From: Candidatus Micrarchaeota archaeon
GTDB lineage: Archaea; Micrarchaeota; Micrarchaeia; Burarchaeales; JAKAKT01
Assembly (NCBI GenBank): GCA_041305385.1
Contig: JBFYLO010000030.1
Coordinates: forward strand, 794-64,793
Direction: 5' to 3'
Length of the DNA stretch: 64,000 bases
Every line of letters begins with the position of its first letter. Position 1 is the first letter of the stretch. The position numbers and the translations under genes are program-made. The notes below the pieces were generated by a model. The model was not told where the DNA came from and did no database searches. It saw nothing but the letters and a program-made list of their open reading frames with translations. Below are positions 769 to 59,644 of the stretch, in pieces.

Positions 769-1449
769 GTGACACCTGGTGAACAGAAGGAACTGACTTT
801 CCTCGACTTGATAGTGCTCCAGAGGATAGGGCCAGACACGACGCTCGAGCGCTTCGGCTCGAAGATAAACTCCTCTTTTTTCGAGGCTGCCAACATCCTC
901 GGGACCATAAAGCTGAAGGGCTATGTGGACATAGACTCGGCCCTTGGGGCAAGCAAGGTCGCCCTCTCGGATGCTGGGAAGGCAGTGCTCGCCACTGCCG
1001 AGGAGAAGAGCGCCGGGGAGATAGACGGGCTCGACAAGGGAATCCTCGGGGCCATTTCAAAGGGGATGAAGGACCCTGAAAAAATCGCGGAGAGGCTCAA
1101 CATAAGGAGCGGGGACCTCGCGTTTCATCTTTACAAGCTGGTGAAAACCAACCACATCGATTACGACCTCAGGTCCGGAAGAGTATCGCTCATGCTCACT
1201 GAGAGTGGCTTCAAGGATGCTGACAGGGGGGAAGAAGAGCCTGCGCCTGAAGAGGAGATTGGGAAGGAGCTTGCAGACGGGCCGAAGGAACCCGGGATGA
1301 GGGAAAAGAAACTTGACATAGGGGCCGAGAGGACCAGGAGCAAAGCATCGTATTATATGAAGAAATGGGGCAAATACAGCGTAATCCTTTTCGTAGTCAT
1401 CGTGGTCATCATTCTCGCGCTGATTTGGCTCTTTCTGAACAGCAGGTGA
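769..1449 (+). CDS. hypothetical protein with a C-terminal TM anchor (GTG start)
   Basis: 226-aa ORF with a charged, helical N-terminal part and a C-terminal hydrophobic segment KYSVILFVVIVVIILALIWLF. Confidence 0.45.
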   Translation: MTPGEQKELTFLDLIVLQRIGPDTTLERFGSKINSSFFEAANILGTIKLKGYVDIDSALGASKVALSDAGKAVLATAEEKSAGEIDGLDKGILGAISKGMKDPEKIAERLNIRSGDLAFHLYKLVKTNHIDYDLRSGRVSLMLTESGFKDADRGEEEPAPEEEIGKELADGPKEPGMREKKLDIGAERTRSKASYYMKKWGKYSVILFVVIVVIILALIWLFLNSR

Positions 1450-1472
1450 TTGGAGTGGATGCCGCGCCGGTG

Positions 1473-1832
1473 ATGATGAATCTCCCGCTATTCCTGGGCG
1501 CGCTCGCCATTACCCTGATAGTCGAGCTGATGGCTTCAGCCGCATTCCTGTCGATGAAAAGAATCCGGGACAAACAAATCCTGGAATATGTCGTAATCGT
1601 GAACCTCATCACGATGCCGGTCGGGATTTACCTGTTCCCGATTCTGTTCACCGGGGTTGCGCTGACAATACTCGCCGAAGTGTTCGCCATCGCGCTCGAG
1701 GCTGTTCTGCTCCATCTCGTGAGCAAAGAGCTCTCAATGAAGAACGCATTCGCCCTGAGCATTCTCATGAACTTGGGAAGCTTCTTCATCGGCGGGGCAA
1801 TTTTCGGCTACCTGGATGCGACGGTGCTTTGA
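1473..1832 (+). CDS. small polytopic membrane protein (4-TM module)
   Basis: Start trimmed to MMNLPLF to avoid overlap with the upstream gene. Hydrophobic helices. Paralogous to the C-terminal domain of the 1829..2629 product (SILMNLGSFFIGGAIFGYL versus SFLMNAVSLFIGGFVYVFL). Confidence 0.45.
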   Translation: MMNLPLFLGALAITLIVELMASAAFLSMKRIRDKQILEYVVIVNLITMPVGIYLFPILFTGVALTILAEVFAIALEAVLLHLVSKELSMKNAFALSILMNLGSFFIGGAIFGYLDATVL

Positions 1833-2629
1833 TGAACAGAGCGCTTGGATTGCTGGCGCTTCTAATGCTCTTTTCCCAGTTTGCTTGTGCTGATACGGGC
1901 CCGATTCCCTCGATGACTTTTTATCTCGATTATGAGACTTCGAAGCCCGTAACGCTGATGACTAGCGGTAATTCGCAGATAGAGTGCTCTGATAAGGATT
2001 GCATCGATGGCAAGCCACTCGCGCAAATGGGACCTTACGGGTTCAGCTGCGATAGGAACAACCAATGCTTTTCTAGGGGGGACGGTATATCGATAGAGTA
2101 TGCATATCCAGGAAATTACCACAAGCTTGTGTTGAATTTTTCCGACGCTGTGCGCGAGAGCAATGTGTTTATCGCGGAGAGCGATAAGTACCATGTGGTT
2201 TTCAATGTTCGGGTGACTGACACCGGGTTGATTGTGAGCGAGATTAAGCCGCCAATCTCAGAACAGAGTTCCTTTCCCTTGGCCCTGTGTATAACAATTA
2301 TTTTGGAACTGGTTGTCGCAGTGCTGTTCCTTTTGGCGACTAATTCTGGAAAGGGCTTCGACAGGATTCTGGCTTCAGTCATGGTCGTGAATCTTGTCTC
2401 ATTGCCCTTCGTGTGGTTTGTGTTCCCGCCCCTCTTTCCGGGAATTGCTGCCATTGTACTGGCTGAGCTTTTCGCACTTGTTTTCGAGGCAGGCGCGATA
2501 TTCTTCGCAAACAAGCAATTCATAACTCTCAAGCGGGCGTTTATTCTAAGTTTTTTGATGAACGCGGTAAGCCTATTCATTGGTGGCTTCGTTTATGTGT
2601 TTCTTAGTCCGATGTTCGTTTCGGCATAG
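1829..2629 (+). CDS. secreted Cys-containing domain fused to a 4-TM membrane module
   Basis: Sec-type signal MMNRALGLLALLMLFSQFACA, an extracellular domain with several Cys, and a C-terminal 4-TM domain paralogous to the 1473..1832 product. ATGA overlap with the previous gene. Confidence 0.5.
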   Translation: MMNRALGLLALLMLFSQFACADTGPIPSMTFYLDYETSKPVTLMTSGNSQIECSDKDCIDGKPLAQMGPYGFSCDRNNQCFSRGDGISIEYAYPGNYHKLVLNFSDAVRESNVFIAESDKYHVVFNVRVTDTGLIVSEIKPPISEQSSFPLALCITIILELVVAVLFLLATNSGKGFDRILASVMVVNLVSLPFVWFVFPPLFPGIAAIVLAELFALVFEAGAIFFANKQFITLKRAFILSFLMNAVSLFIGGFVYVFLSPMFVSA

Positions 2630-3097: not shown

Positions 3098-3652
3098 ATG
3101 CGGGCGCAGGTGAGCGGCTCTGTAGAAAATCTAGGGAGCAGCACTGCCCCCAATTGCGGCTGTCCGCCCGGGCGGACAGGTCGGCTCCCGGGAGCCGACC
3201 ACTTGCGCTTCGGGCGCAAGTGCCGCGGTGCAGTGCTGCCGGGGCATTTCTACAGGGCGCAGGTGAGCGTTGACTTCATAATCGCTTCCCTCGTGGTGAT
3301 GTCGCTCTTCTCGATTGTTTTCGGCCTCTACATCACGAAGAGCAGGGGCGTTGGGGAGGTGATGTCCAGCCTCGAGGCGCAGAGATTGGGCGATAGAATC
3401 GCCTGGAACATCAATGAAGTCTCGAGGGCGGGCGATGGTGCCAGGGCCGAGGTCTTCATCCCGAATGCGATTTGGGGCGAACAGTATTACGTATCCGTAG
3501 AGGGCAGGTGGACAGAGGTGGTCTGGAACCACGGCGGCTCCGAGAACCATCTCTCGGTTCCATTGATGACGAATAATACGAGGGGCGGGATTTTCAACCC
3601 GAACACGAGGCTCGAGATAAAGAACGAGGGTGGAATTGTTGAAATCTCTTAA
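3098..3652 (+). CDS. pilin-like gene with a 153-bp in-frame insertion between codons 6 and 7
   Basis: Reads MRAQVS–(51 inserted codons)–RAQVSVDFIIASLVVMSLFSIVFGLYI. The inferred ancestral N-terminus MRAQVSVDFIIASL is a typical class III signal. Confidence 0.45.
   Translation: MRAQVSGSVENLGSSTAPNCGCPPGRTGRLPGADHLRFGRKCRGAVLPGHFYRAQVSVDFIIASLVVMSLFSIVFGLYITKSRGVGEVMSSLEAQRLGDRIAWNINEVSRAGDGARAEVFIPNAIWGEQYYVSVEGRWTEVVWNHGGSENHLSVPLMTNNTRGGIFNPNTRLEIKNEGGIVEIS
3102..3269. mobile_element. MITE-like 153-bp insertion flanked by 15-bp direct repeats (gggcgcaggtgagcg), with imperfect terminal inverted repeats and three internal GC-rich palindromes
   Basis: Direct repeats at 3102–3116 and 3255–3269. 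Termini ctgtagaaa... / ...tttctacag, with an internal inverted gcagcactgc/gcagtgctgc. Perfect palindromes gtccgcccgggcggac, gtcggctcccgggagccgac and cttgcgc-ttcgg-gcgcaag. Confidence 0.4.
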
Positions 3653-15989: not shown

Positions 15990-17021
15990 TCACATCGACT
16001 TCAGGGCCGCTGCCAGCAGCTCTATGGCATTGCCCACGTCTTTTTCGCTGGCAACCCCGACTCCGCTGTGGATGTAGCGCGTGGGCACGCAGACCGATAT
16101 CGAGGGGATTCCCTCGCGCACGTTGAACACGCGGGCTGCATCCGTCGAACCGCCCTCCACCACCTCGAGCTGGTAGGGTATCTTGTGCTTCTTCGCCGTC
16201 TGGACAAGCCAGTCGACCATCTTCCTGTCGGAGAAATTGCCCCTGCCTGCTGCCTCCACTATGCTGATGCACGGGCCTTCGTTGAGCCTTACGATTGCCT
16301 CGTCCTCGGTGCACTCCGGATGGTCTGCGGCAACTGCCGTGTCGACTGCGATGAAGTGCCTCGGGTAATACTTGAAAGCCGAGACTGTCGCCCCCTTCCC
16401 GAAAGTCGAGACCTCCTCCTGGACAGTGCCCACGAAAGCGAATTCCCCCTTCACCCTCTTAGCGACTTCGAGCATCACGTGGCAGCCTATCCGGTTGTCA
16501 AGCGCTTTCCCGGTGAACAGCCCGTTCCCCAGGCGCGTGAAGCTCACGTTGAAGCAGACGGGATTCCCCACCTGGACCCCCATGTCGAGCGCATCGTGCC
16601 TGTCCTTGGCGCCAATGTCGATGAACATCTGCCTGTACTCAATGGGCTTCTTCATGTCCTCGTCCTTGAGCATGTGGGGCGGCTTCGTGCCTATCACTCC
16701 CTCAATCGTCTTCCCGTTCTCGGTCCTCACGAAAACACGCTGGTTCGGGAGAACCCTGTCATCTATACCGCCTATTTTTATGAACCTCAGGAATCCTTTC
16801 TCGTTAATCGATTTCACCATGAGCCCTATCTCGTCCATGTGGGCGCCCAGCATCACCTCGGGCCTCTCGGCCTTCCCCATCTGCCCTATCACGTTCCCCA
16901 TGCGGTCTATGGTGACCTTGTGGCAGGACTTCTTGAGCTCGGATTCCATAATCTTTGAAACGTCTCCTTCAAAGCCTGTAGGGCCGAAAGCATTTGACAG
17001 TTTTTCCATGAGCGGATTCAT
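15990..17021 (-). CDS. M42 family aminopeptidase (TET/FrvX-like)
   Basis: VMLGAHMDEIGLMVK and the overall M42 architecture. 343 aa. Confidence 0.7.
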   Translation of the reverse strand: MNPLMEKLSNAFGPTGFEGDVSKIMESELKKSCHKVTIDRMGNVIGQMGKAERPEVMLGAHMDEIGLMVKSINEKGFLRFIKIGGIDDRVLPNQRVFVRTENGKTIEGVIGTKPPHMLKDEDMKKPIEYRQMFIDIGAKDRHDALDMGVQVGNPVCFNVSFTRLGNGLFTGKALDNRIGCHVMLEVAKRVKGEFAFVGTVQEEVSTFGKGATVSAFKYYPRHFIAVDTAVAADHPECTEDEAIVRLNEGPCISIVEAAGRGNFSDRKMVDWLVQTAKKHKIPYQLEVVEGGSTDAARVFNVREGIPSISVCVPTRYIHSGVGVASEKDVGNAIELLAAALKSM

Positions 17022-17094
17022 GTGGACACCTCAGTTAGGGATTAGGCAGTGCTGTTTAAAAAATATTGGTAAACCGGGATAACGCTGGCTGAGC

Positions 17095-17184
17095 CCGAGG
17101 AGTTGTGGTTTCCTCGGATTCGGCTCGACCAATTTGTGGCTTCGAGCCACAAATGGTCCATTTTTGCCCCGGGGCAAAAATTGG
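17095..17184 (+). other. three consecutive near-perfect hairpins in a 420-bp intergenic region (candidate structured ncRNA or regulatory element)
   Basis: ccgagga..tcctcgg; gaccaatttgtggct/agccacaaatggtc; ccatttttgcccc/ggggcaaaaattgg. Confidence 0.3.
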
Positions 17185-17399
17185 AGCTGCTCGAGGGATC
17201 TAAGCGAGCGTTCGTCCGAGCGAGCCCGATTTGTCGTTTTTCGAGCCGCCTGAGCGATTGTTTGCCCGAGTCCCGAGTCCGCCATAAATTTAGTTGACAT
17301 TACCCTAAACCGGAAAGCTTCATCTCACAGAAACGTTTTTAAATAGCCCCGGAGTAATCCGACATGGCGACCAATGAAGGCATGTCTTGTGAGACTAGC

Positions 17400-17452
17400 C
17401 CGAGAAAAGTTTAAATAGGACAATGCCACAACGTTAAGCATTGTAATAGTTA
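17400..17452 (+). promoter_or_regulatory. pilin promoter: TATA box tttaaata plus an SD-like gaggtgg
   Basis: The TATA box is about 65 bp upstream of the ATG at 17469. A second copy of the motif (gtttttaaatagc) lies 62 bp further upstream at 17336–17346. Confidence 0.4.
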
Positions 17453-17468
17453 AGACGAGGTGGTCTTA

Positions 17469-17966
17469 ATGAATTTTAAGAGAGGACAGGCGGCTATGGA
17501 GTACCTGATGACCTACGGATGGGCCATCTTGGTCATCGTCATCGTGCTCGCAGCGCTGCTATATTTGGGTATCTTCACCCCGATAACTCCGGAGGTTTGC
17601 ATGATGCCCGCAGGTATCAACTGCCAGAAGACGTATTTGTCATCTGCTAACGACAATATAGATGTGACCCTTGTGAACGGGCTGCAGAAGAGCATTGCGG
17701 TCATGGAGATGAAGTGCACCCAGGAGAGCGCCCCGACAGCATTTGACGAGGTTAAGGTCGATGGTACGGACCTCGCAGTCTCGATGGGACAGGCCTTCTC
17801 GCCTGAGACGGCATTGGATTGCTACGACTCAACTGGAGCTGCTGCGACTTTCGATAACGGTGAGCAATACAGCGGGAAGCTGTACATAAGGTACTACTTC
17901 AAGGATGAAGGAAGCGGCTCGCCAAGAACGATTGTTGGAACCATCACTGTGAAGGCACAGGAGTGA
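17469..17966 (+). CDS. pilin with a class III signal peptide (major pilin candidate, MEYLMTYGWA type)
   Basis: MNFKRGQAAMEYLMTYGWAILVIVIVLAALLYLG. Strong promoter and SD, and an oligo-T tract downstream. Confidence 0.7.
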   Translation: MNFKRGQAAMEYLMTYGWAILVIVIVLAALLYLGIFTPITPEVCMMPAGINCQKTYLSSANDNIDVTLVNGLQKSIAVMEMKCTQESAPTAFDEVKVDGTDLAVSMGQAFSPETALDCYDSTGAAATFDNGEQYSGKLYIRYYFKDEGSGSPRTIVGTITVKAQE

Positions 17967-17997
17967 GTTTCTCTTTTTTTCTTTTTTGTTTTTATTC
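17967..17997 (+). terminator. oligo-T tract (archaeal-type terminator) after the first pilin gene
   Basis: tttctctttttttcttttttgtttttatt directly after the stop codon. Confidence 0.45.
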
Positions 17998-18010
17998 CCT
18001 TAATTCTTAG

Positions 18011-18517
18011 GTGAAAGTGTTGAAATTTGCAAAAGCGCAGGCGGCAATGGAGTACCTGATGACCTATGGGTGGGCCATCCTGGTCATCGTCATCGTGCTC
18101 GCAGCGCTGCTATATTTGGGTGTATTTACCCCGAAGCCGCCGGAATTTTGCCAGATGCCCCCTGGGCTTGGCTGCACTTCAGCCTATCTGGATTCCTCGA
18201 CTGACGAGCTTTCCATAACAATCTACAACTCCTTCCAGAAAGACATGACCGTTATAGCCCTAGGATGCACTGACCAGGACGGGGCGACATACACCTGCAC
18301 GGTGGATATGTGCGGGGCTGCTTATCCCCCGGATGGCGCGACCATACCAAGAGGAAGCGGGAAGAAGTTCACGCTCCCCTGCTATTACGAAAACGAAGCA
18401 GTTGACTTCAGCAATGGCGAGACCTACATTGGAAAGGTAAATATCAAATATTACTTTTCCGATGAAGCCGGGAGTAACCGGATGACCTACGGCAAGGTTA
18501 ATTTAGTGGCTAACTAG
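18011..18517 (+). CDS. pilin with a class III signal peptide, tandem paralog of the 17469 gene
   Basis: ...KFAKAQAAMEYLMTYGWAILVIVIVLAALLYLG. The start codon is uncertain (GTG at 18011 or TTG at 18020). Confidence 0.65.
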   Translation: MKVLKFAKAQAAMEYLMTYGWAILVIVIVLAALLYLGVFTPKPPEFCQMPPGLGCTSAYLDSSTDELSITIYNSFQKDMTVIALGCTDQDGATYTCTVDMCGAAYPPDGATIPRGSGKKFTLPCYYENEAVDFSNGETYIGKVNIKYYFSDEAGSNRMTYGKVNLVAN

Positions 18518-31711: not shown

Positions 31712-31720
31712 GGGGAGCAG

Positions 31721-32305
31721 GTGAGCGTCTGTTTTGAAAATTTTGTATTTGATATTCTCCCGGGGGTTTACGAGCCTGCGGAGGACTCATTCATGCTGGC
31801 AGAGCATTCGAAAGAGCTGACCGGGGATTTGCTCGACGTGGGGACTGGGTGCGGAATCCAGGCGATTGTGGCGAGGAAGGCGAGGGCAACTGGGATAGAT
31901 GTAAACGAAAAGGCAGTTGAGAATGCAAAAGTGAATGCCAAACAAAACAAATCGAGTGCTGTTTTTTTTGATTCTGATTTGTTTGAACAGGTTGAGGGGA
32001 AATTCGATTTTATCGTTTTTAATCCCCCTTATTTACCGACCTCCAAGGAGGAAAAGCTGGCAGGACCTGAAAACCTTGCCTATGATGGCGGGGAAAACGG
32101 AAGGGAGCTGATTGACAGGTTTATCGATGAGTTCCCGCCTTATTTGAAAGATGGCGGGGAGCTTCTGATTCTGCTCTCGAGCCTATCCGATAAGGGCGAA
32201 ACTGGAGAAAAACTGAGGGAGACGGGATTTTCGAGCGAGGAGCTTGCGAAAAAACATGTCGGGCTATTTGAGGAGCTGAGAGTGCTAAGAGCTTGGAGGG
32301 AATGA
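31721..32305 (+). CDS. HemK/PrmC-family protein-glutamine N5-methyltransferase (archaeal Mtq2-like)
   Basis: SAM motif LLDVGTGCGIQAIV and the catalytic NPPY (FIVFNPPYLPT). GTG start. Confidence 0.65.
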   Translation: MSVCFENFVFDILPGVYEPAEDSFMLAEHSKELTGDLLDVGTGCGIQAIVARKARATGIDVNEKAVENAKVNAKQNKSSAVFFDSDLFEQVEGKFDFIVFNPPYLPTSKEEKLAGPENLAYDGGENGRELIDRFIDEFPPYLKDGGELLILLSSLSDKGETGEKLRETGFSSEELAKKHVGLFEELRVLRAWRE

Positions 32306-44608: not shown

Positions 44609-46288
44609 CTAATCCTCCTTCTCCTTCTTCTTCTCCCTCTTTATAAGCGTGCTGAGCCTGTTGAGCTGCTCCTTCCACTCGTCCATGTCTAGTTTCTCGT
44701 CCTCTGTTTTTTTGGAAGTGGCGGGCCTTTCCTCTGAGTCCTCTGGCTCGTCTATCTGCTCGCTGACTACGCTTTGTGCAGGCGCCTTTTTAAGCAATTC
44801 GGCGGGCTTGACCTTGCCGCCTATCATCTCGACGACTTTTTCCCTATCCCTGTAATAGAGGGCTACAATCCTTCCGGCGTCGTTAATCGTGAATATGGAG
44901 TTCTTTACCATATAATCGATGATGGATTTTTTCTCGGCGAGGTCCGCCTCCATCTCCCTCTCGTTCATTCCGCTGTATGACAATATCTCCTCGGTCACGC
45001 GCTTGTGCTGCCCAATCTTGTCCAGCGAATCATTCTTCGCGTTCCAGCGGTAGACTACGTTGACGTCGGCATACTTGCCGCTCCTGCCGACAACCTCGGC
45101 CACTTCGAATGTGCGCCTCACTCCCGTTCTCCTCTGCCGGTATTGCACGAGGATTATGTGCACGGCCTCGAGCATGTTCTCGGGGAGGTTGATGGGCGGG
45201 GTGGTCATCCTGTTCTTCACCTGCTCGGCATTGTCGGCATGGAGCGTCGCATAGACCGAGTGGCCCGTGTGCATGGCCTCGAAAAGCACCTCTGCCTCCT
45301 TCTGGCGCCTTATCTCACCGACGATGATGCGGTCTGGCCTCATGCGGAGGGCGTTCACCATGAGGTCGAGCATCGTAACTTCCCCTTTGCCCTCCGGATT
45401 CGGCAGCCTGGTGACCATTGGCGTCCACTGGAGGTATTCGGGGAGGAGTATCTCTCTCGTATCCTCTATGCTGATTATGCGCTGGTTGGGCGGGGTGAAT
45501 AGGAGCACTGCGTTGAGTATTGATGTTTTACCCGAGGCGGTTCCTCCGCCCACTATGATGTTCATCTCGTACTGCATGCAGAGCCAGAGGAGCGCTGCCA
45601 CTTCGGGGCTCATCAAGCGCATCTCCGGCGTGAGCAGCTTCGTGATTGTCCAGGGATTCTTTGCAAATTTCCTTATGGTCATCGAGTTTCCCTTGTTGGA
45701 AATGGGGAACAGGATGGCATTCACACGCTCTCCTGACTCGAGGTGAGCGTCGAGCAGCGGCTGCAGGTTGGATATCTGCCTGCCGACCCTCCTTGCGACT
45801 ATGGATGAGTAGTTGGCAATCTGCTCCTCGCTGTCGAAAACGAAGTTGGTCTTCAGCCAGCCGTGCTTCTGGTGGTAGACCCACATGGGCTCCTTCGCAG
45901 AAGTGATGCAGAGATCCTCCAGGTATTGGTCCTCGAGAATGAGCTCCATGTCCCCGAGGCCTATGAGGTCGTGGGTGAGCTTTCCGACCAGAATCTTCCT
46001 AGTCTCGTCGCTTATCTCCGCCATCTGGTTTTTCACTAGCTCGTTTGATTTTTCTATGAATTTGTTCTTGACCGAGTCGAAGGCCTTTGTGTCCAGCATC
46101 TCCGGGGTCCTGAGGCCGACCTCCTCGACTATCCTCTCGCGCAGCTGCTTGAGGGCCGCCTCGGTGGCCTTGTGGAGCTTTATCTGCTTCAGCTCATAGG
46201 TGTCGACGAACTCGTTCTCGCTCCTTACTATGTCTACCTCTGCCGGAACCCCGTCGCACACTATTTTGTATTTGTCAAGGATCTTCAT
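44609..46288 (-). CDS. type II/IV secretion system ATPase (FlaI/VirB11/TadA-like), second copy, with a charged C-terminal tail
   Basis: Walker A IVGGGTASGKTSILN and the His box EAEVLFEAMHTGHSVYATLHAD. C-terminus KREKKKEKED. Confidence 0.8.
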   Translation of the reverse strand: MKILDKYKIVCDGVPAEVDIVRSENEFVDTYELKQIKLHKATEAALKQLRERIVEEVGLRTPEMLDTKAFDSVKNKFIEKSNELVKNQMAEISDETRKILVGKLTHDLIGLGDMELILEDQYLEDLCITSAKEPMWVYHQKHGWLKTNFVFDSEEQIANYSSIVARRVGRQISNLQPLLDAHLESGERVNAILFPISNKGNSMTIRKFAKNPWTITKLLTPEMRLMSPEVAALLWLCMQYEMNIIVGGGTASGKTSILNAVLLFTPPNQRIISIEDTREILLPEYLQWTPMVTRLPNPEGKGEVTMLDLMVNALRMRPDRIIVGEIRRQKEAEVLFEAMHTGHSVYATLHADNAEQVKNRMTTPPINLPENMLEAVHIILVQYRQRRTGVRRTFEVAEVVGRSGKYADVNVVYRWNAKNDSLDKIGQHKRVTEEILSYSGMNEREMEADLAEKKSIIDYMVKNSIFTINDAGRIVALYYRDREKVVEMIGGKVKPAELLKKAPAQSVVSEQIDEPEDSEERPATSKKTEDEKLDMDEWKEQLNRLSTLIKREKKKEKED

Positions 46289-46297
46289 TCCATTGCC

Positions 46298-46939
46298 TCA
46301 ATTTCTTTTGCCGAACAGGCCCCCTAGTTTGAAGCCTCCTGGCTTCGGCTGCTCCGTCCTCTCCGCCGAAGAGCCCGATGACCTGAATTCGCCGACCCGC
46401 CTGTGGAATTCCTTGAACCTTTCCTGGAGCGTCTTCGAGTCGTTGACGACCTTCTGGTCCGAGACGGTGATTCTGCTCTCGAAGTCCTTGGCTATCCGCT
46501 CTATCTCCTCAGCCTGCCTGAGGGAGCCGGGATCCTTTCCGTTCCTCTGCTTAATGGCATGGAGCGTTCCCTCCGCCTCCACCATCCACTGGGAAACATC
46601 CCTCTCGATGGATTTGTAGTCGGACTCGAATTTCTCTATGTCCTTGTTTATCATCGAGCCGAGGTTCTTGATTCTCTCAACGTCCTGCCTCAGCCTATCG
46701 ACCTCCTCGTTCTTCGTCTCCAGCTGCTGCTTGGATATGAGCTCGGTCTTTCCCGAGTCGATGAGCGCGTACTTGACCTTTATCATCCCGCTCTCCTCGA
46801 GAATGGCAGCGAGATGCTCCACCTGCGCCGGGTTGAGGGCAAGGGAAACGGATACCTCTGTTATCGTAGTCCTGCCCTTGCGCTGGATGAAGTCCAGCAC
46901 GCGGTCGATGACAGTGCTCATTTCCTTCTCTTCGGCCAT
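46298..46939 (-). CDS. wHTH plus coiled-coil protein (possible regulator or assembly factor of the pilus operon)
   Basis: Start trimmed to MAEEKEM. N-terminal wHTH-like, C-terminal heptad-rich helix, and a GGFKLGGLFGKRN tail. Confidence 0.45.
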   Translation of the reverse strand: MAEEKEMSTVIDRVLDFIQRKGRTTITEVSVSLALNPAQVEHLAAILEESGMIKVKYALIDSGKTELISKQQLETKNEEVDRLRQDVERIKNLGSMINKDIEKFESDYKSIERDVSQWMVEAEGTLHAIKQRNGKDPGSLRQAEEIERIAKDFESRITVSDQKVVNDSKTLQERFKEFHRRVGEFRSSGSSAERTEQPKPGGFKLGGLFGKRN

Positions 46940-46961
46940 CGTATCATCCTTTCCTAAGCAC

Positions 46962-47528
46962 CTATGGCGGCTCAATCCTTCCCCTGCACATCCCGGTTTC
47001 GGTGTGTATTACATCGGAGCGCGGGGAGGTGTAGTTTATGGCGAGCTTGGTTGTGAAGACCAGGTTCATGTCCCCTGGTATCTCCATGGTCCCGTTAACT
47101 ATGAACCGCTGTCCCGCAGTCATGTTAAAGGGAAACGCAGTGGCGTTGACTGTGCATGTGCCTGACCCCACCGGGCACTGCCAGACGTATAACTGCGGGC
47201 TGTCACCAAATCCGATGGGCACGTCGTTCCCGTCCTGGTCCTTAAGCGTGATGCCCGAAACAGTTATGTTGGTGCCCCTGTTGTTTATCATCTGGAATAT
47301 GATGACTGAGCGGGTTTCCGGGGAATCAGGATGGGGGGTTACCTTGAAGTCTGGTATTCCAAAGCTGGAGAACATCCAGCACTCATTGGAAACGTTGAAA
47401 AAATTCGCGTCGAAAACCTTCAGGCTCATCAGCAAAAGGACTATTATGCCGACTATGAGCATCGCCCAGCCGTAGGTCATGAGGTACTCCATTCCCGTCT
47501 GCGCCTTGCCGGCTTTCCAAATTTTCAT
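46962..47528 (-). CDS. pilin with a class III signal peptide (MEYLMTYGWA type)
   Basis: MKIWKAGKAQTGMEYLMTYGWAMLIVGIIVLLLM. Confidence 0.6.
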   Translation of the reverse strand: MKIWKAGKAQTGMEYLMTYGWAMLIVGIIVLLLMSLKVFDANFFNVSNECWMFSSFGIPDFKVTPHPDSPETRSVIIFQMINNRGTNITVSGITLKDQDGNDVPIGFGDSPQLYVWQCPVGSGTCTVNATAFPFNMTAGQRFIVNGTMEIPGDMNLVFTTKLAINYTSPRSDVIHTETGMCRGRIEPP

Positions 47529-47538
47529 ATCAATCCGC

Positions 47539-48570
47539 TCACGGACATGGTTGAGTTATTTTGTAAATGGCAGCGTGGTCATTATCCATCTTGAACCAGT
47601 TGTTGGGGTTGCTCGTTATGATGGTCACGCCGGTGCCAGGGTCCACGGGAGTGCCTTCGTAGGTGATTCCAGTAACGTTGCACCCCTGGAAGAATGTCGA
47701 GTTGAAATACAGGTGGTCGACCATGGTCGAATTCGGCCTCACTGGCATGCCCTTGGGCGCGCTTTGGACAAGCTCATAGAAGTTAACGAAGCTCTCGATG
47801 CCCATGTTCGGGTATTTGTTGGTGCAGTTGTGGGGAACGTCCTTGGTGCTGAGGCATCCCTGAAGCCGCTCCATGAACGATGGGGCCTCGCTGCTGTTCG
47901 TGTACCAGCTTTCGTTTATCATGTAGGAAAGCGAGGTCGTGTCGTTGATGGTCATGTTCGCCTTCTTTATCTTCCTCTCAATCGACCCAAGCGTGTTCAG
48001 GGGGTAAATCGGGTCGGTGAAGCCTTCGATGGGAACGAGGGTCGTCGCATTGTAGATGCGGAAGAGCTTCATGTTCCCGCCCCTGTCGGTGATGTTCGCC
48101 TGGAGCTCTATGGAGAAGTTCAGGGTGAACGGGTCTGAGTGGTTTATCTTTAGGTTCATCACCGAGATGTTCGCGATGAATCCGTGGTTTGCCCCTATCA
48201 GCTCAGTGGACCTAATCCAGTTGGCGAACGAGCTGTCCATCATTATCGGAGCCGAGGCTCCGTTCGAGTAATTATTCAGGAGTATCAGGTGCTTCAGCTC
48301 CCCATCGGAATCGTTGACTGTCCGGCCATAGGTGTCGGTGTAGTCGATGACGGCGACAATTGCCCTTTTTGAAGCAATGTCAAGAACGCGCGGGACATCA
48401 AGGGCTATGGAGTCCGCGTAGTTGGCGAGCTCTATGCCCTCAAATTTCACGGTCATCTGCTCGCCCTGGGTCTGCACCGCGCCCATGTAGCTGGTTATGT
48501 AAAGCACTATGGGCGCAAGAAGGGACAACACCATCAAAGAGTAAAAGATTCCTGCCGAGGCCATTCTCAA
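47539..48570 (-). CDS. pilin-like surface protein with a globular domain and dense N-glycosylation sequons
   Basis: N-terminal hydrophobic helix MASAGIFYSLMVLSLLAPIVLYI. At least 13 N-x-S/T sequons in 343 aa. Its stop overlaps the upstream gene's start. Confidence 0.5.
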   Translation of the reverse strand: MRMASAGIFYSLMVLSLLAPIVLYITSYMGAVQTQGEQMTVKFEGIELANYADSIALDVPRVLDIASKRAIVAVIDYTDTYGRTVNDSDGELKHLILLNNYSNGASAPIMMDSSFANWIRSTELIGANHGFIANISVMNLKINHSDPFTLNFSIELQANITDRGGNMKLFRIYNATTLVPIEGFTDPIYPLNTLGSIERKIKKANMTINDTTSLSYMINESWYTNSSEAPSFMERLQGCLSTKDVPHNCTNKYPNMGIESFVNFYELVQSAPKGMPVRPNSTMVDHLYFNSTFFQGCNVTGITYEGTPVDPGTGVTIITSNPNNWFKMDNDHAAIYKITQPCP

Positions 48571-51500
48571 TCACCGTGGATTACCCACGCCACTACGCCC
48601 ATCTCTATCGGTCCCCAGAGGTATGGAACCTCCGTAACTGATGATACCCTAATCAATATGTCGGGTGAAAGCTCGACGTCTATTGGGTTGCACTCCGACC
48701 CCGACCACTCGGTCCCATCACAGGTTAGCGGCCCTGGTCCCGAGTATCTGCTCGAATCAAAATTTATGTAGTCGAGAAGCCTTATAAATGCATCATCTAT
48801 GGAGTTATATTCCGGGTGCAGGCGAGGGTCGGAATAGCCCGGGCCAGTCATTTCAACGTGCGTCGGGTCGAAAGTTACTCCTTCTACCCCATAGCCAAGC
48901 AGGATGGTCTGGTTCCCATCCTGCACCCCGTCCCCGTTAAGGTCATAGTAGATTGTGACGTTTCGGCCGACTGCCAGGTCAAGAACGCTTGAGAACGGGA
49001 CCGATGCCTGGAACCTGGCCTTGTAGATGACCCTGTTCGCAGTCGGGCATTCCTTGCTGTTGTTATTCGCCGCTATTCCAGTCGTAACATTTATGTAGTT
49101 GGTTTCGTTGGACTTTAGGAGCCCGGACGGGAACCTGACGATGAACGGGTCCCCGAGTTTGGCGTATGGAGTTAGGTATGTGGAAAGGTTGAACACGTTT
49201 CTCCACTGATTTCCGGTGTTGCTTGACCGGACCGTGACGTTGTGGGTCCAGTAGTTGGAAGAGTAGGAGGTGACCCGCGCCTCGTAAGGCTCGAACCACT
49301 CCGGGATATAGAAGCTCCCGGAACAGTTCCCGAGAGGGTCGGTCTCCTGTATGATGGATATGTCCCTGTAGCCGAGCGGGGGCACGTCATACTCGAAATC
49401 GAACTCCAGGTAGGACTCGGGGTAGAGCGTCGTGCTGATGTTGCCCTCGAGGCTTATCTCCTGGGTCACGTTTGCGATTGTCCGTATCTTGTCGCCCAGC
49501 ATCATATAGATTAACTGGAGCTCGCTTGCGTTGCTGCTCACATAATATGTGCCGTTCCCCGCATCAGCAATTCCCTTGAGCGTGCAGTTGGCATTTGTGC
49601 AGTTCACAACTGGCCCGAAGCCCACGGCATCTACGGTGAGATTCAGGACAGTCTGGTTTGTGTAGTAGGAACTCCAGATTGCGTTGTTGACTGCAGCATA
49701 GCAAGAATCGATTCCCGTGTCCAGACAATTCCTGGGGCTCGTACCGTTGCAGCAGGCATATCCGATGGTCTCGGTTCCGTTCCAGACAGGAATCGACCAC
49801 CGCAGTATTCGCCCGTTATCGCCAGCGGCAAAACCCAAGGTGGAGTTCACCATATCGGATGTACGGAGCGCACTTGTGGTCGGACTGTACCTCTTGTCCC
49901 ACTCCCCGTTGTCCCATTCGCTTATGTTCCCATTGGCGCCCATCGCGTAGCCGAGAGTGCCGTTTACGAAAAGGCCGGAATAGTAATTTATCGCTGGGGC
50001 GGGTGCGCTGTCCAGGGACCAGGAGGTGCCATCGAATCTGATTATCCGTCCCGCATCTCCAAACGCGTAGGCCCTATAAGTCGAGTTATCCACGAAAGCC
50101 AGTGCCCTGAGCGTGTTTGCAGTTGGGGAGGCCATGGCAGTCCAAGTGGGATATGTCCATTGGTAAATGACACTCCCCCCGCTTGCTCCTGCGCCCACGA
50201 TGAAGCCCTCGTTCCTGCTCTCGTTGATTCTCACAGCATAAAGAGCGCCTGCGCCTGCTATTGGGTTGTATAGATATGACCAAGTGGCCCCGTTCCAGAC
50301 GAGAACCCGTCCGTTGTCTCCGACTGCGTATGCAAGAGTGCCGTTAACTACGAAAACGCTTCTGAGTGTGCTCCCGCATCCTCCTGGTTGAGTATCCGCA
50401 GCCCATGAGCCGGTCCATTTTCGTATGACGCAGCTGTCCCCGACTGCGAAGCCAAGTGTGCGGTTATAGAGGTGCACCGCCCGGAGAATGGTGGCTGGGT
50501 CACTCTGGAGAGACCATGATACGCCGTTCCAGGCCAGCACCCTTCCTCCCCCAGAGGGGTTTCTGCCTACTGCGAAGCCGAATGTGTCGTTCAGGATGTC
50601 CATGCCATAGATTGCGCTGGTGGTCGGGCTCGTTTCCCCGCTCCACCAGTAGCAGCTGCCAACCGGGGTGCACCGATATCCGGCTATCCCGTCGCTCATG
50701 ACGACTATGAACTTCTTCCTGTTGATGCTTGACTGCGCCTGCAGGATTTCGCGCGCCTTGTTTATGGCGCAGCAGATGCATGTGCCGCCATTAGCATCAT
50801 AGTCTTCTATAGTTTCGTTTAGATACAACGCATCGGTAGACAGCGAAGTGTTTGTCGCAGAAGTGCTAAATGAAACGAGAGCCACCCTGTTGCCTGTGGA
50901 GCCGTTCAGCACTATGCTTATGAACTGCTTGTCAAGGCATTTGGCAAGGGCGAGGCGCTGGGTGTTTCTCTGGGTATACATGCGAGAATCAGAGCAGTTG
51001 TTGCTCCATTCGCTTCCGTCTGTATCATCATCATAACCTATCCTCCAGTCCATGCTCCCGGAAACATCGGTGATGAGCACTATGTCCGCTATGCCGAGGC
51101 CCCCGCCAGTGAGGTTCGCGCCTGCAAGAAGCCTGAGCGGGACTGTGACCTGGCTCAGGTTCCCATAGTTGAGGACCGAAGAGAAGTTTATGTCCTGTAT
51201 GTAAATCTCTTGTATGGCGTCTGTGCCGCTGGCCTCATAAACAGTCTTGTTGGCAACCACCATGGTCGTGGTGTAGTTGTTTAGGAGGCGCAGGTAGGCG
51301 GTTATTTGCTTCAGTTCCCCTGGCACGTAGAAGGAATCATAGAGGTTCACTAGGCCATCGATGCCTGGGAAGTAGTAGCGCTCTGACCCAGTCACTATCT
51401 CGCCCAGCTGGGAGGTGTCGTAGACGACCTTTATGTATCCGCCGCCGATGTATTTCTTGGTCAGGTTTCCGCCAGTAAAGTTAATTGTGAAATTATTGAA

Positions 51501-52277
51501 GCCTCCCTTCGATATGTTTCCTATGCAATGGGAGTTTGTGATGTTCCAGGCGTCTGCGGAGAAGTTCCCGCCGCTTTTGTTGAATTGCCCGCAGTACTGC
51601 CCGTTTATGGACATGGTGAAGTTGTCGCCTGCATCAACCTCCATGTAAATCAGCGAGACGTTGGCATCCGAGGGAACTCCCCTGACGACTGCAGTGAGGT
51701 TCCCCTCTCCGATAAAACCGCCGAAGAAGAAATACTGCGCCGACTGCTTGCCGAGAATATTCGAAAGGAACGCCCTCGCGGTGAAGCCAACGTGGGGCTT
51801 GCTCTTCATGTAGCCGGAGACCATGCGCCTGCTCACTGTCACGATTCTGCTGTCGGGGTCCAAATGCGAAGTGTTGGAGAGCGTATCGTTGTGGACCGTG
51901 AACGCCCAGTGGACGCTTTCCGGAACCATGTGCGTCAGTATTGCATTGGTAAGGTTTCTGGCGGCTTCGGTGTCGTTCGACCTGTTGAGGGACCACAGGG
52001 CGCCATCCACCTCCAGGATTGTGTTGTTGAGGTCCTTGTCATTCACATAGCCCGCGTAGTAAAGGTCCCTGACCTGCTTCTCGCTCCAGATGTCAGAAAG
52101 CCTGAGCCTAGCCAGCATTCCAATCATGTCGCCGGCTTGCGAATAGATGGATTCCTGCATCAATTCGGAAGAGACTGACTCCAGGGAGACGAGGGTGAAG
52201 AGGTAGACTACGGACATCAGTATGAGAAGCGCGAAAATCGAGTCGATGGTAAAGAAAAATCCTCTCATTTTATCCAA
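48567..52277 (-). CDS. giant pilin-like adhesin (1236 aa): class III-like N-terminus, vWA domain, beta-propeller repeats
   Basis: N-terminus MDKMRGFFFTIDSIFALLILMSVVYLF. MIDAS motif DIVLITDVSGSMD, then LVSFSTSAT, then VVMSDGIAG. At least 7 repeats of about 48 aa, G..G.[IV]..W.G..W. Its C-terminal domain is shared with the next giant. Confidence 0.7.
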   Translation of the reverse strand: MDKMRGFFFTIDSIFALLILMSVVYLFTLVSLESVSSELMQESIYSQAGDMIGMLARLRLSDIWSEKQVRDLYYAGYVNDKDLNNTILEVDGALWSLNRSNDTEAARNLTNAILTHMVPESVHWAFTVHNDTLSNTSHLDPDSRIVTVSRRMVSGYMKSKPHVGFTARAFLSNILGKQSAQYFFFGGFIGEGNLTAVVRGVPSDANVSLIYMEVDAGDNFTMSINGQYCGQFNKSGGNFSADAWNITNSHCIGNISKGGFNNFTINFTGGNLTKKYIGGGYIKVVYDTSQLGEIVTGSERYYFPGIDGLVNLYDSFYVPGELKQITAYLRLLNNYTTTMVVANKTVYEASGTDAIQEIYIQDINFSSVLNYGNLSQVTVPLRLLAGANLTGGGLGIADIVLITDVSGSMDWRIGYDDDTDGSEWSNNCSDSRMYTQRNTQRLALAKCLDKQFISIVLNGSTGNRVALVSFSTSATNTSLSTDALYLNETIEDYDANGGTCICCAINKAREILQAQSSINRKKFIVVMSDGIAGYRCTPVGSCYWWSGETSPTTSAIYGMDILNDTFGFAVGRNPSGGGRVLAWNGVSWSLQSDPATILRAVHLYNRTLGFAVGDSCVIRKWTGSWAADTQPGGCGSTLRSVFVVNGTLAYAVGDNGRVLVWNGATWSYLYNPIAGAGALYAVRINESRNEGFIVGAGASGGSVIYQWTYPTWTAMASPTANTLRALAFVDNSTYRAYAFGDAGRIIRFDGTSWSLDSAPAPAINYYSGLFVNGTLGYAMGANGNISEWDNGEWDKRYSPTTSALRTSDMVNSTLGFAAGDNGRILRWSIPVWNGTETIGYACCNGTSPRNCLDTGIDSCYAAVNNAIWSSYYTNQTVLNLTVDAVGFGPVVNCTNANCTLKGIADAGNGTYYVSSNASELQLIYMMLGDKIRTIANVTQEISLEGNISTTLYPESYLEFDFEYDVPPLGYRDISIIQETDPLGNCSGSFYIPEWFEPYEARVTSYSSNYWTHNVTVRSSNTGNQWRNVFNLSTYLTPYAKLGDPFIVRFPSGLLKSNETNYINVTTGIAANNNSKECPTANRVIYKARFQASVPFSSVLDLAVGRNVTIYYDLNGDGVQDGNQTILLGYGVEGVTFDPTHVEMTGPGYSDPRLHPEYNSIDDAFIRLLDYINFDSSRYSGPGPLTCDGTEWSGSECNPIDVELSPDILIRVSSVTEVPYLWGPIEMGVVAWVIHGD

Positions 52278-55200
52278 GTCACCACGCCCACATCAACTGG
52301 ACCGTACATATACGGGACTTCGTTTATAGCTACGCTCCGCATTATTATATCCTCCGTGATTTTCACATCTATCGGGTTGCACTGCGAGCCCGGGGCCTCG
52401 GGTGAACCGCTGCAGGAGTTGTCAGTTATGAAGTTGAGCTGCCCCATGAGTTCGAGAAGAGTGCTTGCCACTGCATTCGTTTCGCTCTCATGCTCTATGA
52501 AGGGCATCTCCACAATCGTCGGATCGAAGGGGACATCCTTGAGGTCCTTGCCCACGGGCAACGTCACGTTCCCGTCCGTGACCCCGTCGCCGTCCAGGTC
52601 GTAGTATACCCTTACGTTCCTTCCGGTTATTTCAGGCAGAACAGAAGAAAACGGGACAGAGCCGCGAATCAGCGCCTCGTATATGGCCCTGTTCCTGTTC
52701 GGACATGTCGCGCTGATTACGCCTGGCCGTTCGCCCGTGGAAACGTTGACTGTAATCACAGCCGGGGCATTGGAGGTTATCCCTGGATATTGGGCCCCTG
52801 GCCCGAGCGGGTCAGTCGGGTCGAACTCTATTACATACGGGTCGCCGAGGCTCGAGAAGCTGTTTCCGAAATATGAGAGGTTGAACACCGGCCAGTTGCC
52901 TGTCCCATTGTCAATGGTCACTCCACTCGTCCAGAGGTTTCCGGAGTAGGAGGTTACCTTAACATTCAGGGGAGTCAGCGCAGCAGGCACCTGGAATTGG
53001 CCAGAACAGCTCGGGAAGGCATCGGTCTCGACAGTCGTAATCAGGTCCCTGTATTCGAGCGGCTCGGACTTTGGAGTGTAGGTGAACTGCAGGTAGGAGT
53101 CTGGGTATAGGATTGTCTGGTTCGCTCCCCTTGTCTCGATGACCTGGTATCTGTAGCTGAGGTTGAGCAGCTGGGCTGCAATCGCCCTGTATGCATCCAT
53201 GAGCATGCTCGTGTCCCTCGCATCGAAGTATGTCCCGTTTGCGCATAGGGCGGTCCTGTTGAGCGTGTCAGCATCAACATCCGCCCCGAACCCCACGGTG
53301 TAGATGATGATTCCGTGGTTGTTGTAAGCGTTGCACGCAGCCTGCACCGTGTCCTCGATTGCGTCGCCAGTCATGCCTGGCCCCATCCCGGCGCATCCGC
53401 GGTTCGCCCTGCCGTCGCTCATCACCGCCATCGACCTAATCCTGCCTGGAGGGGATTGGGCAATGAACATGTTGGTTGCCCGGATTATCCCGCAGCAGAT
53501 GCACGTTTCGTACCACGTCTCGGAATCGTTCACGAAAGCGCTGAGCTCCGTTAAGTCGTTGGTAAAGTCATGCGCATCCACGATGCCATCCGGAAAGAGT
53601 GTCGTGTCTGGAGAGTTCGGGCACGGCGGGTCCTTGACCAGGAAGGATTTGGAAGAGGAGCCGGCTGCTGCGGTGAAAGTGATGTCGGATGACAAAAGGG
53701 TTTCCCATTTCATGGCCACTTGGGCGGATTTGCCTGGCTCGATTATCGGGATATCGACGGCACCTATTTTTTCCGATTCAGCATAGAACTCGACTGTTCC
53801 CCCGTCGCTTGCCCCTTCCCCGTAGTTCTCGAGTGTCGCAGTAAGCCTGAACTTGGAGAGAGAGCCGCAGGCTGCACGGGAGGGGGAAACTAGGAACTCG
53901 GAAATCCTCAGCATCGGCTTCTTTTGCGGCGGAGCCAGCAGAACCTGCTTGAGGTGCTCGATGAATGGCGCACCGTGCCCGGCGCCGCTTATGAATATGG
54001 TCGTCTGGTTTATGGCGAGGCAATCTGATGGGGGCGGGATGGAGTAATGGCACTGCCAGCTGTCCTCATCGTAAAATGCATCCTCGGGGCCAGTCGCGCC
54101 GCCCGCATAGCCCGGGTTTGACCATGCATAGATGTTGTAAAGCGTGTCGAAAGCGAGGGTCGTATACCAGTACGCGCTCACGTTGGCGGACTCCCCTGGC
54201 TGCAAGGCAGGCGTGTTGGTCTTGTTTATCCTGTCGCCTATGCCGTTGAAATTAGGCGCGAAGAAGTTCACATCGAAGTCGCGGGGGGCGGGGCAGTTTG
54301 CGTTCCTGTTTCGCACAGTCGCGTTGATTTGGACCAGCTCATCTGAAACCTTGGCAGCACTGATGTTCGTCACTGCGGTGCGGACCCAGCTGTTTTCGAA
54401 ATATGACCAGAAGTAGTTGTCAGTGGGGCCTCCGTATGCCTCGTGGTTCTCCCAGATGTAACCTTGCCCGGCAGGCGGCCGATGCAGACCAGAGAGGATT
54501 ATGCTGCCAGTGCTGTTCGGGATGAAATCAACAAATCCGTTTATGTGGAACCCATATTCCGGCTGCTCGGAGACGTGAACCCCGAGGAAAGGATTTATGC
54601 CGTCCCATACATAATGGAGGTTTGCCACCTGGCCCCTGTTGAGCCCGTTGAATGTCTGCTGGTAAAGGTTTAGCGAGTTGGTTCCGAAAGTCGTGGAGAA
54701 GCCGAAGCTTGAGTTGAAGGGCTGGTATATGTTGCAGGGACCATCGTTCGTTATGTTCATGTCAACAGTGTAATTGACCCCGACCCCGAGCACACGGCAG
54801 AATGACCCAATTTCCAGATACTCGGGCGGGTCGTAGTAGGGCGGGGCGCCAATATCCGGGACTACGTGCATTCTCGTTATGTTCAGGTTGGATACCTGCT
54901 CCTGGAATATGTAGGTTGCGTTGTTGTTGTCTTCGTTTTCCTCAACGATGACGTTCTCTGGGTCAGCCCAGCCAATCATGCGGAGGTCCTCCATGGTATT
55001 CAGGACAATGTTGAAATGCTCGTATGAGGTCGCGCCTTGGGCCAGCCCGTGGAGGGTGTGAGTACCCAGAAGCGTGACCGGAGCGGAACCCCCATAGGGA
55101 GTTGAGGAAAGGGTGACGTTGAAATCATCCGTTGTTGGACAGCCTCGGTTGGTAACGGTGACCATAAAATCGAGCGGGACGTTCTCACCGAAGCATATCC

Positions 55201-59223: not shown

Positions 59224-59227
59224 ATTA

Positions 59228-59644
59228 TCAGCCCGGGGATATTACAACCTCTCCGTTCTGGTTTGAAATCAGATTGTAACCTACTCTCGGGTTCCCGGTG
59301 ACGTTTGATGTTATTATCGGCATTATGTAATAGCCACCGGTCCAGGAAATCTCGACAAACTGGTGCGTTGTGTTCACTGAAAGGGAGTAGCCCGTGTGGC
59401 TTGCCAGATATTCCGGGATGGAGAACCTGTGGGAATACCCCCTGCCGACTATCACTGCAGTGTTGATCTCGGTGGAGACGACCTCCGCAATCCGCTTCCC
59501 GTCCATCTCGGTCCGCTGGGCGTATATCATCTCATCCCTGTCCCTCTCGATGACCATGACAACAAGGAATATGATTATCAATGCTGATATCAGGGCAAAC
59601 AGTTCTATGGCAGCCTGGCCTTTTCTTCCTTTCAAAACCCCCAC
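59228..59644 (-). CDS. pilin-like protein with a class III signal peptide
   Basis: MGVLKGRKGQAAIELFALISALIIIFLVVMVI. Confidence 0.55.
   Translation of the reverse strand: MGVLKGRKGQAAIELFALISALIIIFLVVMVIERDRDEMIYAQRTEMDGKRIAEVVSTEINTAVIVGRGYSHRFSIPEYLASHTGYSLSVNTTHQFVEISWTGGYYIMPIITSNVTGNPRVGYNLISNQNGEVVISPG

Follow-up and report, generated by a model that had tools for sequence, protein, structure and literature searches.

The 64,000-nt stretch of DNA analyzed here (referred to below as the window) spans positions 794 to 64,793 of contig JBFYLO010000030.1 from an assembly of “Candidatus Micrarchaeota archaeon” (GenBank accession number GCA_041305385.1). Close to its start lies a minor-pilin-like gene of the DUF7266 type with a class III signal peptide (Table 1). 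Its product, once repaired by removal of an inserted segment, gives a weak match to PF23928/DUF7266 and appears to be a type IV pilin-like protein, judging from the short charged leader, the [KR][GA]/Q-type processing site, the hydrophobic N-terminal helix, and the pilus genes in the neighborhood. Between codons 6 and 7 of this gene, a 142-nt palindromic segment has been inserted, which we consider to be probably a small noncoding mobile element of an undescribed family, resembling a MITE (miniature inverted-repeat transposable element). The insert is marked by two copies of the 15-nt sequence GGGCGCAGGTGAGCG, detected with a repeat finder, which are identical at all 15 positions and are separated, start to start, by 153 nt, just as stated in the original prediction made from the letters of this DNA. 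This is one of only two pairs of local direct repeats (seed of at least 13 nt, less than 400 nt apart) in the window. The 138 nt between the two copies (3117 to 3254) have a GC content of 66.7%, compared to 53.2% for the entire window, and contain three of the six perfect palindromes with arms of at least 9 nt that are found in it, in agreement with the earlier description of the segment as GC rich with three perfect palindromes.

A search with the 184-aa product retrieved its own entry and 12 relatives (P0002 to P0013) from metagenome-assembled genomes (MAGs) of “Ca. Micrarchaeota” and from metagenomes. Ten of these are 133 aa long (184 minus 51), and the other two, P0010 and P0013, are longer solely through upstream-start extensions. 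For P0010 (166 aa, encoded at positions 59 to 559 of contig L087), this is an overextended call from an upstream TTG codon; the ATG codon at position 158, where the DNA of the pilin start reads ...TTTTTATGAGGGCGCAGGTCAGCGTTGAC, gives 133 aa. All 12 N termini conform to M[RK][AG]Q[VI][ST]VDFII, the pilin pattern being M[RK][AG]QVSVDFIIASLVV. At the DNA level, the syntenic loci L001, L005, and L006, as well as L087, carry a single copy of the repeat right after the ATG codon; the empty site reconstructed for the window locus is TGAGGTATTTGAATGCGGGCGCAGGTGAGCGTTGACTTCATAATCGCTTCCC. The shared synteny includes other pilin-like genes with class III signals, PEPCK, and T2SSE/T2SSF. Because neither the 12 orthologs nor the syntenic DNA loci have the extra segment, it represents an insertion, and a conserved N-terminal extension, which was considered as a candidate, is refuted. 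The original placement of the insert in the leader-coding part of a pilin-like gene is thus confirmed by the 12 orthologs and by the empty site in three syntenic loci. The rest of the gene is intact, with every invariant column of the family retained.

A second copy of the element was found by scanning one genome per GTDB species (n = 185,579) with the pattern CTGTAGAAA-N(5-11)-GCAGCACTGC, which should match either end of the element. The scan returned 14 single-end chance matches and one locus, L016, with two inverted matches 110 nt apart. L016, a contig of 4.6 kb, belongs to a different “Ca. Micrarchaeota” MAG, in which this one contig matched; its copy (positions 2250 to 2393) and that in the window share 75% identity across 146 nt. 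The two copies are 142 to 144 nt in size and share the order of their parts, with an identical 12-bp terminal repeat, variable spacers of 9 and 7 nt, an identical 10-bp stem, and three hairpins. In both, the similarity runs from GCTCTGTAG to CTACAGRGC, so the common ends are GCTCTGTAGAAA...TTTCTACAGRGC, with the L016 copy ending in ...CTACAGAGC; the end pair that an autonomous partner would carry is GCTCTGTAGAAA...TTTCTACAGAGC. The L016 copy is intergenic and lies, flanked by two apparent divergent TATA boxes, between the gene for the tRNA-splicing endonuclease endA (minus strand, ATG codon at 2188) and a gene for a KaiC-like ATPase. The same spacer has no element in L080 to L084 (five contigs, EndA 90% identical) or in L085 and L086 (84%), and a single MAG, GCA_027364515.1, has empty versions of both insertion sites (L003 and L084). 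Such lineage-specific insertions at two unrelated sites in two genomes are strong evidence of mobility. The original prediction was to fall if no other copies existed and if the 51 codons were conserved in orthologous pilins; both halves failed, and the interpretation of the segment as a mobile insert survives. The endA gene of L016 (positions 1022 to 2188, minus strand) encodes a 388-aa protein with the tRNA_int_endo_N and tRNA_int_endo domains, has very many orthologs in Micrarchaeota, and has the element 60 nt upstream. This proximity is probably a coincidence, though notable given the intron hypothesis discussed below.

The comparison of the two copies sets the element at 3117 to 3258, and therefore the true target site duplication is probably 11 bp long (GCAGGTGAGCG). 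The 4 extra nucleotides of the apparent repeat arise because the terminal GRGC of the element (GGGC in the window, GAGC in L016) matches the 4 bases upstream of the target, so that GGGC at 3255 to 3258 represents both the first 4 nt of the right repeat and the last 4 nt of the right inverted repeat. This match could be either a coincidence or a hint of target preference. Thus, of the 153-bp inserted element initially proposed, the insertion flanked by a duplicated target stands, while the element proper has 142 nt and the strict duplication 11 bp. The terminal inverted repeats, first described as imperfect, are indeed present, but CTGTAGAAA/TTTCTACAG and GCAGCACTGC/GCAGTGCTGC are perfectly complementary, and only the spacers of 9 and 7 nt between the stems S1 and S2 differ, including in sequence between the two copies. 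The target CGGGCGCAGGTG (3101 to 3112) is identical at 11 of 12 positions to CGGGCGCAAGTG (3211 to 3222), which comprises the loop and 3′ arm of hairpin 3 (P, ~0.002 to 0.006 with shuffled or random 19-mers), and therefore the 5′ arm of this hairpin can pair with either copy of the repeat; no counterpart of this likeness is seen at the L016 flanks. The window target also has a weak self-complementarity (GGCGC-AGGTGA-GCGTT), and CGCA occurs within the duplicated target at 3105 to 3108 and at 3258 to 3261.

Table 1. Parts of the palindromic element and its host gene in the window
Feature	Position (nt)	Strand	Remarks
Minor-pilin-like gene with insertion (DUF7266 type, class III signal peptide)	3098-3652	+	ORF (open reading frame) of 184 aa, reads through the insert
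Left 15-nt direct repeat GGGCGCAGGTGAGCG	3102-3116	+	One copy only at orthologous loci, including L087
Strict target site duplication, left side	3106-3116	+	GCAGGTGAGCG, 11 bp, probable
Palindromic element	3117-3258	+	142 nt, GCTCTGTAGAAA...TTTCTACAGGGC; bounds are where similarity to L016 (2250-2393) begins and ends
Left terminal inverted repeat, 5′ strand of basal stem S1	3117-3128	+	Pairs with 3247-3258; identical in L016
Stem S2, 5′ strand, second inverted block GCAGCACTGC	3138-3147	+	Pairs with 3230-3239; 10/10 pairs identical in L016
Hairpin 1, perfect palindrome CTGTCCGCCCGGGCGGACAG	3160-3179	+	In L016, 5/8 pairs altered on both sides, 0 broken, CCGG loop kept
Hairpin 2, perfect palindrome GGTCGGCTCCCGGGAGCCGACC	3179-3200	+	In L016, outer 4 bp kept, one mismatch/bulge, one compensated pair
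Hairpin 3, CACTTGCGC-TTCGG-GCGCAAGTG	3200-3222	+	Best-conserved hairpin; one additional G-C pair in L016
Stem S2, 3′ strand GCAGTGCTGC	3230-3239	+	From the fold
Right terminal inverted repeat, 3′ strand of S1	3247-3258	+	From inverted-repeat and fold analysis
Right copy of the direct repeat	3255-3269	+	Codons Arg-Ala-Gln-Val-Ser remade in frame (AGG GCG CAG GTG AGC)

Folding of the insert as RNA, which had been suggested at the outset, gave −99.8 kcal/mol (z = −4.4) for the 176-nt region, with the basal stem S1 consisting of 12 bp, including one U·G pair (U3119·G3256), and with only weak pairing at the start codon and over the initial ~19 nt. The window and L016 copies fold in the same way. 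With the helices set by hand (MAFFT puts hairpins 1 and 2 one column off register between the copies), 36 of the 42 homologous base pairs are identical, one shows a one-sided change (U·G to U-A), five differ in both bases, and no pair is broken. All five two-sided changes fall in hairpin 1, hairpin 3 gains a whole G-C pair, and the CCGG loop of hairpin 1 and the UUCGG loop of hairpin 3 are unaltered. Since the palindromes stay perfect through compensatory change, some force must maintain them; candidates are selection for a fold of either RNA or single-stranded DNA and repair in which one arm serves as the template for the other. The predicted minimum free energies of the element alone (sense, −91.4 kcal/mol versus antisense, −87.2 kcal/mol for the window copy; about equal for the two strands of L016) do not decide between DNA and RNA folds. 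The tetranucleotide GTAG at 3122 to 3125 and its complement CTAC at 3250 to 3253 are each 5 nt from an end of the element. There is no run of 4 or more T residues inside the element and thus no obvious archaeal terminator. Comparison of the window with Rfam 15 gave no gathering-level match (the best subthreshold one being RsmW, 21.8 bits versus a threshold of 52), and a scan for tRNA and tmRNA genes found none in it.

Up to the Ala/Gln cleavage site, the leader comprises 54 residues (not 57, as first counted), compared to 3 in the normal gene, with 8 Lys and Arg residues versus 2 Asp and Glu residues. Because the duplicated stretch begins with base 2 of the Arg codon and the last bases of the element are ...ACA, the second repeat reads AGG GCG CAG GTG AGC. 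The duplication thus recreates the Arg-Ala/Gln context, and therefore the 51 extra residues sit in the leader that is normally cut off; from the sequence, they would remain in the cytoplasm, where the prepilin peptidase acts. The absence of stop codons in the insert, to which the original prediction gave weight, carries little information: its probability is ~0.33 for this base composition and ~0.11 if the length is also required to be a multiple of 3, and three of the six frames are open in each of the two copies.

Taken together, these data point to the following scenario, in which the element would have been mobilized in trans by a transposase encoded elsewhere, whose staggered cut of 11 to 15 bp would have generated the target duplication. 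Element and duplication together would have added 153 nt to the gene, in frame and stop free, and the duplication would have rebuilt the Arg-Ala/Gln site of the prepilin peptidase just before the hydrophobic N terminus of the pilin, so that the positively charged cytoplasmic leader would only grow by the 51 extra residues, from 3 to 54. Should the peptidase tolerate a leader of this length, the insertion would leave the mature pilin unchanged and be nearly neutral; if it rejects the leader, the gene would be a recent knockout. On present reading of the sequence, we judge a tolerated insertion confined to the leader to be at least as likely as a knockout. Inactivation, one of the two outcomes given in the original prediction, is not supported: the ORF is intact, and the processing context has been rebuilt. 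The wild-type gene could be regained if slippage occurred between the repeats, across the hairpin, and this would be a by-product rather than a dedicated switch.

The attributes of a MITE seen here are the terminal inverted repeats, a small size without coding of its own, and empty sites in relatives at both loci, along with the repeat (11 nt strictly, 15 nt apparently) around the window copy. Coding capacity was assessed in the frame of the gene, as a pooled six-frame query saturated at 8,000 candidates, did not recover even the window's own protein, and was uninformative, so that negatives from low-complexity queries of this sort deserve no trust: the 50-residue insert peptide has no related peptide among 5.8 billion proteins, and an exhaustive HMMER search of 1.84 billion representative proteins gave one match, to a spurious cysteine-rich repeat protein. 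Several observations weigh against this assignment. No recognizable target duplication exists at L016, even allowing for the 8-bp extra flanking stem, which is not what one would expect had a transposase with a staggered cut produced both insertions. With one copy in the window and one contig matched in the L016 genome in the exact-match scan, only two copies are known, so the multicopy attribute of a MITE is unproven. No other copy was found in the window by BLASTN, loose motif pairs, or a search for hairpin clusters, and none in ~150 kb of related Micrarchaeota loci, while the same pattern matched 51 loci in JGI metagenomes, all of them single-end chance matches. Plasmid and phage collections yielded chance matches to GC palindromes only, and viral contigs, scanned with four patterns, chance matches only. 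The scans of the species-representative genomes and of the JGI metagenomes give a lower bound because they required 19 exact bases and would have missed diverged copies. Two candidate further copies in the window, a weak match at 31713 to 31741 and paired 11-mers at 28420 and 28539, proved to be ordinary coding sequence when read. The element thus looks like a member of a low-copy family, so that the original assignment to a MITE-like family stands as far as the terminal inverted repeats shared with the copy at an unrelated site are concerned but not as regards the abundance of typical MITEs. The search for a cognate transposase proposed at the outset came up empty: neither a transposase nor Cas1 nor a REP (repetitive extragenic palindromic)-associated tyrosine transposase (RAYT) was found among the 38 window ORFs scanned. 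Further, the perfect palindromes with compensated changes suggest that selection acts on a structure, formed by RNA or single-stranded DNA, that goes further than a decaying MITE would need. Finally, leader length tests for PibD and FlaK address only minimal lengths of 3 to 5 residues (PMC4187195), and the predicted processing of a 54-residue leader lies beyond this published range.

In anatomy, the element is a MITE, and in behavior only, it resembles the Rickettsia palindromic elements (RPEs), but by sequence it is kin to neither. Like the MITEs derived from DDE transposons, such as Sulfolobus SM/SMN, Correia, and ERIC, it is small, has no ORF, and shows terminal inverted repeats, a target duplication in the window, and empty sites. 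Unlike them, it has no known parent insertion sequence (IS), is apparently low in copy number, lacks a duplication at L016, and keeps its hairpins by compensation. A duplication of 11 to 15 bp is at the long end for IS families; transposases of the IS4 group produce duplications of ~9 to 13 bp. RPE-1 and its relatives are palindromes of ~150 bp found in frame within genes (PMC10969869, PMC3733652). The element shares with them its palindromic, hairpin-forming, noncoding, and mobile nature and an in-frame insertion that adds ~50 residues while the ORF survives. However, its host is an archaeon of the DPANN group, the sequences are unrelated, the plasmid and phage collections contained no similar DNA, and, in contrast to the multicopy RPEs with their conserved peptide, we found only two copies, one of them intergenic, and no conserved peptide. 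In addition, the insertion described here is within the cleaved leader, not in the mature protein. Casposases generate duplications of 14 to 15 bp, and the 14-bp duplication in Methanosarcina mazei starts with 5′-CGCA (PMC6977970). The likeness to casposons (archaeal host, terminal inverted repeats, and an 11- to 15-bp duplication) rests on that length, with CGCA being a weak 4-mer lead; moreover, casposons span many kilobases and encode Cas1 and PolB, whereas neither a miniature derivative nor Cas1 was seen in the window.

The best-surviving alternative, which we still regard as unlikely, is that of a REPIN- or PATE-type element moved as single-stranded DNA by a tyrosine (HUH) transposase of the IS200/IS605-like or RAYT kind. 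Such movement does not duplicate the target, and the 11- to 15-nt repeat would be secondary, for example, from repair or microhomology. This alternative would account for the lack of a duplication at L016, where the flanks (2240 to 2249, ATCTGGGT, and 2394 to 2403, ACCTAGAT) lengthen the element stem by 8 bp and align with a short palindrome that the relatives with the empty site contain (CAGTTAAACCAACTG in L080); from these sequences, the L016 copy apparently entered a small preexisting hairpin at its loop, splitting the palindrome. The GTAG motif 5 nt from each end is arranged as in head-to-head GTAG REP dimers, of which intragenic examples exist (PMC3733652), and the element shares with these dimers and with REPINs the inverted modules with GTAG close to their outer ends, the structured spacer, and the single long hairpin. 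More than 65% of the genomes of Micrarchaeota are reported to carry IS200/IS605 elements (PMC13343696), maintenance of the hairpins is strong, and the likeness between the target and an internal arm recalls guide-type target recognition. However, the window copy lies between exact 15-nt direct repeats, the ends are true terminal inverted repeats, unlike those of IS200/IS605 and the PATEs derived from them, and the 5′ flanks of the left end (GTAA versus AGCG in the two copies) share no target tetranucleotide. PATEs have subterminal hairpins instead and lie 3′ of a fixed motif of 4 or 5 nt. REPs are bacterial, high-copy sequences without target duplication that have a stem-loop next to GTAG. The element has no such 5- to 13-bp stem-loop after GTAG (the arms within GCAGCACTGC are just 4 bp long with a 2-nt loop), its copy number is low, and the window encodes neither a RAYT nor any other Y1 transposase.

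The compensatory changes and the unaltered CCGG and UUCGG loops also raise the idea of a mobile structured nucleic acid with a selected four-way-junction fold, maybe recognizing its target by base pairing through the 5′ arm of hairpin 3. This would be either a small guide-carrying element of the DPANN group or an insert taken out or skipped at the level of RNA, and we view it as improbable. A similarly low standing is given to an on/off phase switch, the other outcome in the original prediction, for which no evidence was found and in which slippage between the direct repeats would excise the insert and restore the pilin gene and reinsertion would silence it. Deletion by replication slippage is known to occur between direct repeats on either side of a strong palindrome, and the repeats here are still identical at all 15 positions. 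However, such excision would be one-way, since precise reinsertion at the same site is not expected. Furthermore, the filled allele keeps its open frame and cleavage site and so may not be “off,” and no insert-free allele of the species was found in the protein and contig collections, in which the best match is 74% identical and five window proteins are not indexed.

Marginally less credible is a free-standing gene for a structured noncoding RNA of Micrarchaeota, a copy of which would have entered the pilin gene through chance recombination. The compensatory changes, the conserved CCGG and UUCGG loops, and the occurrence of about one copy per genome sampled would fit such a gene. It is hard to reconcile, though, with the empty state of both sites in close relatives, which means that this is not a conserved gene, with the lack of an Rfam match and of a promoter-like context (the TATA-like boxes around the L016 copy point away from it), and with the terminal inverted repeats and target duplication, which are marks of a transposon.

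We find it very hard to believe in an intervening sequence handled at the RNA level, either as a bulge-helix-bulge intron cut by the splicing endonuclease or by ribosomal bypassing between the repeated codons. A very stable, conserved structure does join both repeats at its base, the wobble pair U3119·G3256 and the slightly lower folding energy favor the sense strand, Micrarchaeota have a three-unit EndA of a kind reported to be of broad specificity, and the take-off and landing codons would be identical, as in bypass elements. But such an intron is excluded by an exhaustive search around the junctions for its signature, a 4-bp helix with a 3-nt bulge on either side: the window has no strict match, no junction pair spaced by 153 nt shows an hBHBh′ motif, and the relaxed matches were all unrelated. 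The GC-cluster or “byp” elements of yeast mitochondria are likewise GC-rich palindromic mobile inserts in genes, with matching codons, but they are 27 to 55 nt long and are skipped by the ribosome. At 153 nt, the insert is ~3 times as long as the longest known hop, bypass is unnecessary because there is no in-frame stop codon, and the second copy is intergenic, between divergent promoters. Least credible of all is a genuine conserved N-terminal extension or an assembly artifact, for which nothing but the open frame speaks, while the segment is missing from all 12 orthologs, its 50-residue peptide has no relative among the 1.84 billion representative proteins, a homologous element occurs in an independent MAG, and a 15-nt repeat is shorter than assembler k-mers and cannot create a chimera.

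Elsewhere in the window, a second cluster of strong hairpins (−104 kcal/mol, z = −3.65) is found at 17085 to 17260, within the intergenic region 16959 to 17459. It contains two adjacent perfect palindromes, ATTTGTGGC-TTCGA-GCCACAAAT at 17132 to 17154 and ATTTTTGCCCCGGGGCAAAAAT at 17160 to 17181; several G·U pairs favor the plus strand, and there is no Rfam match even at an E value of ≤1. This region could represent an unannotated structured RNA of the DPANN genome or another palindromic element. The window also encodes a second large type IV pilus-like cluster (44609 to 59644 on the minus strand and 17460 to 18517) with an ORF resembling a T2SSE ATPase, several short ORFs that have class III signals (starting with ...KAQ/GQAAMEYL...), and giant ORFs of 1,236 and 1,916 aa with pilin-like hydrophobic N termini. 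The segment from 17460 to 18517 encodes two nearly identical 168-aa pilin paralogs (17460 to 17966 and 18011 to 18517).

With respect to the MITE-like palindromic element in the pilin gene, the event itself is ordinary in kind and changes no major concept, and the novelty lies in the family, which has no match to any catalogued RNA or repeat. What remains novel beyond that is the selected fold, the 11/12 likeness between the target and the hairpin arm, and the mobilizing enzyme. The mobile elements of DPANN archaea are barely catalogued, and this analysis adds to them a palindromic family with defined ends, a fold, and two insertions with the matching empty sites. For genome annotation, such inserts inflate the N termini of pilins and can mask class III signals from predictors. 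The pilin locus also provides a clean natural example of how an insertion may be tolerated, in which the few codons of a cleaved class III leader were hit and the cleavage site was rebuilt by the target duplication, and thus a natural test of the leader length that an archaeal prepilin peptidase accepts.

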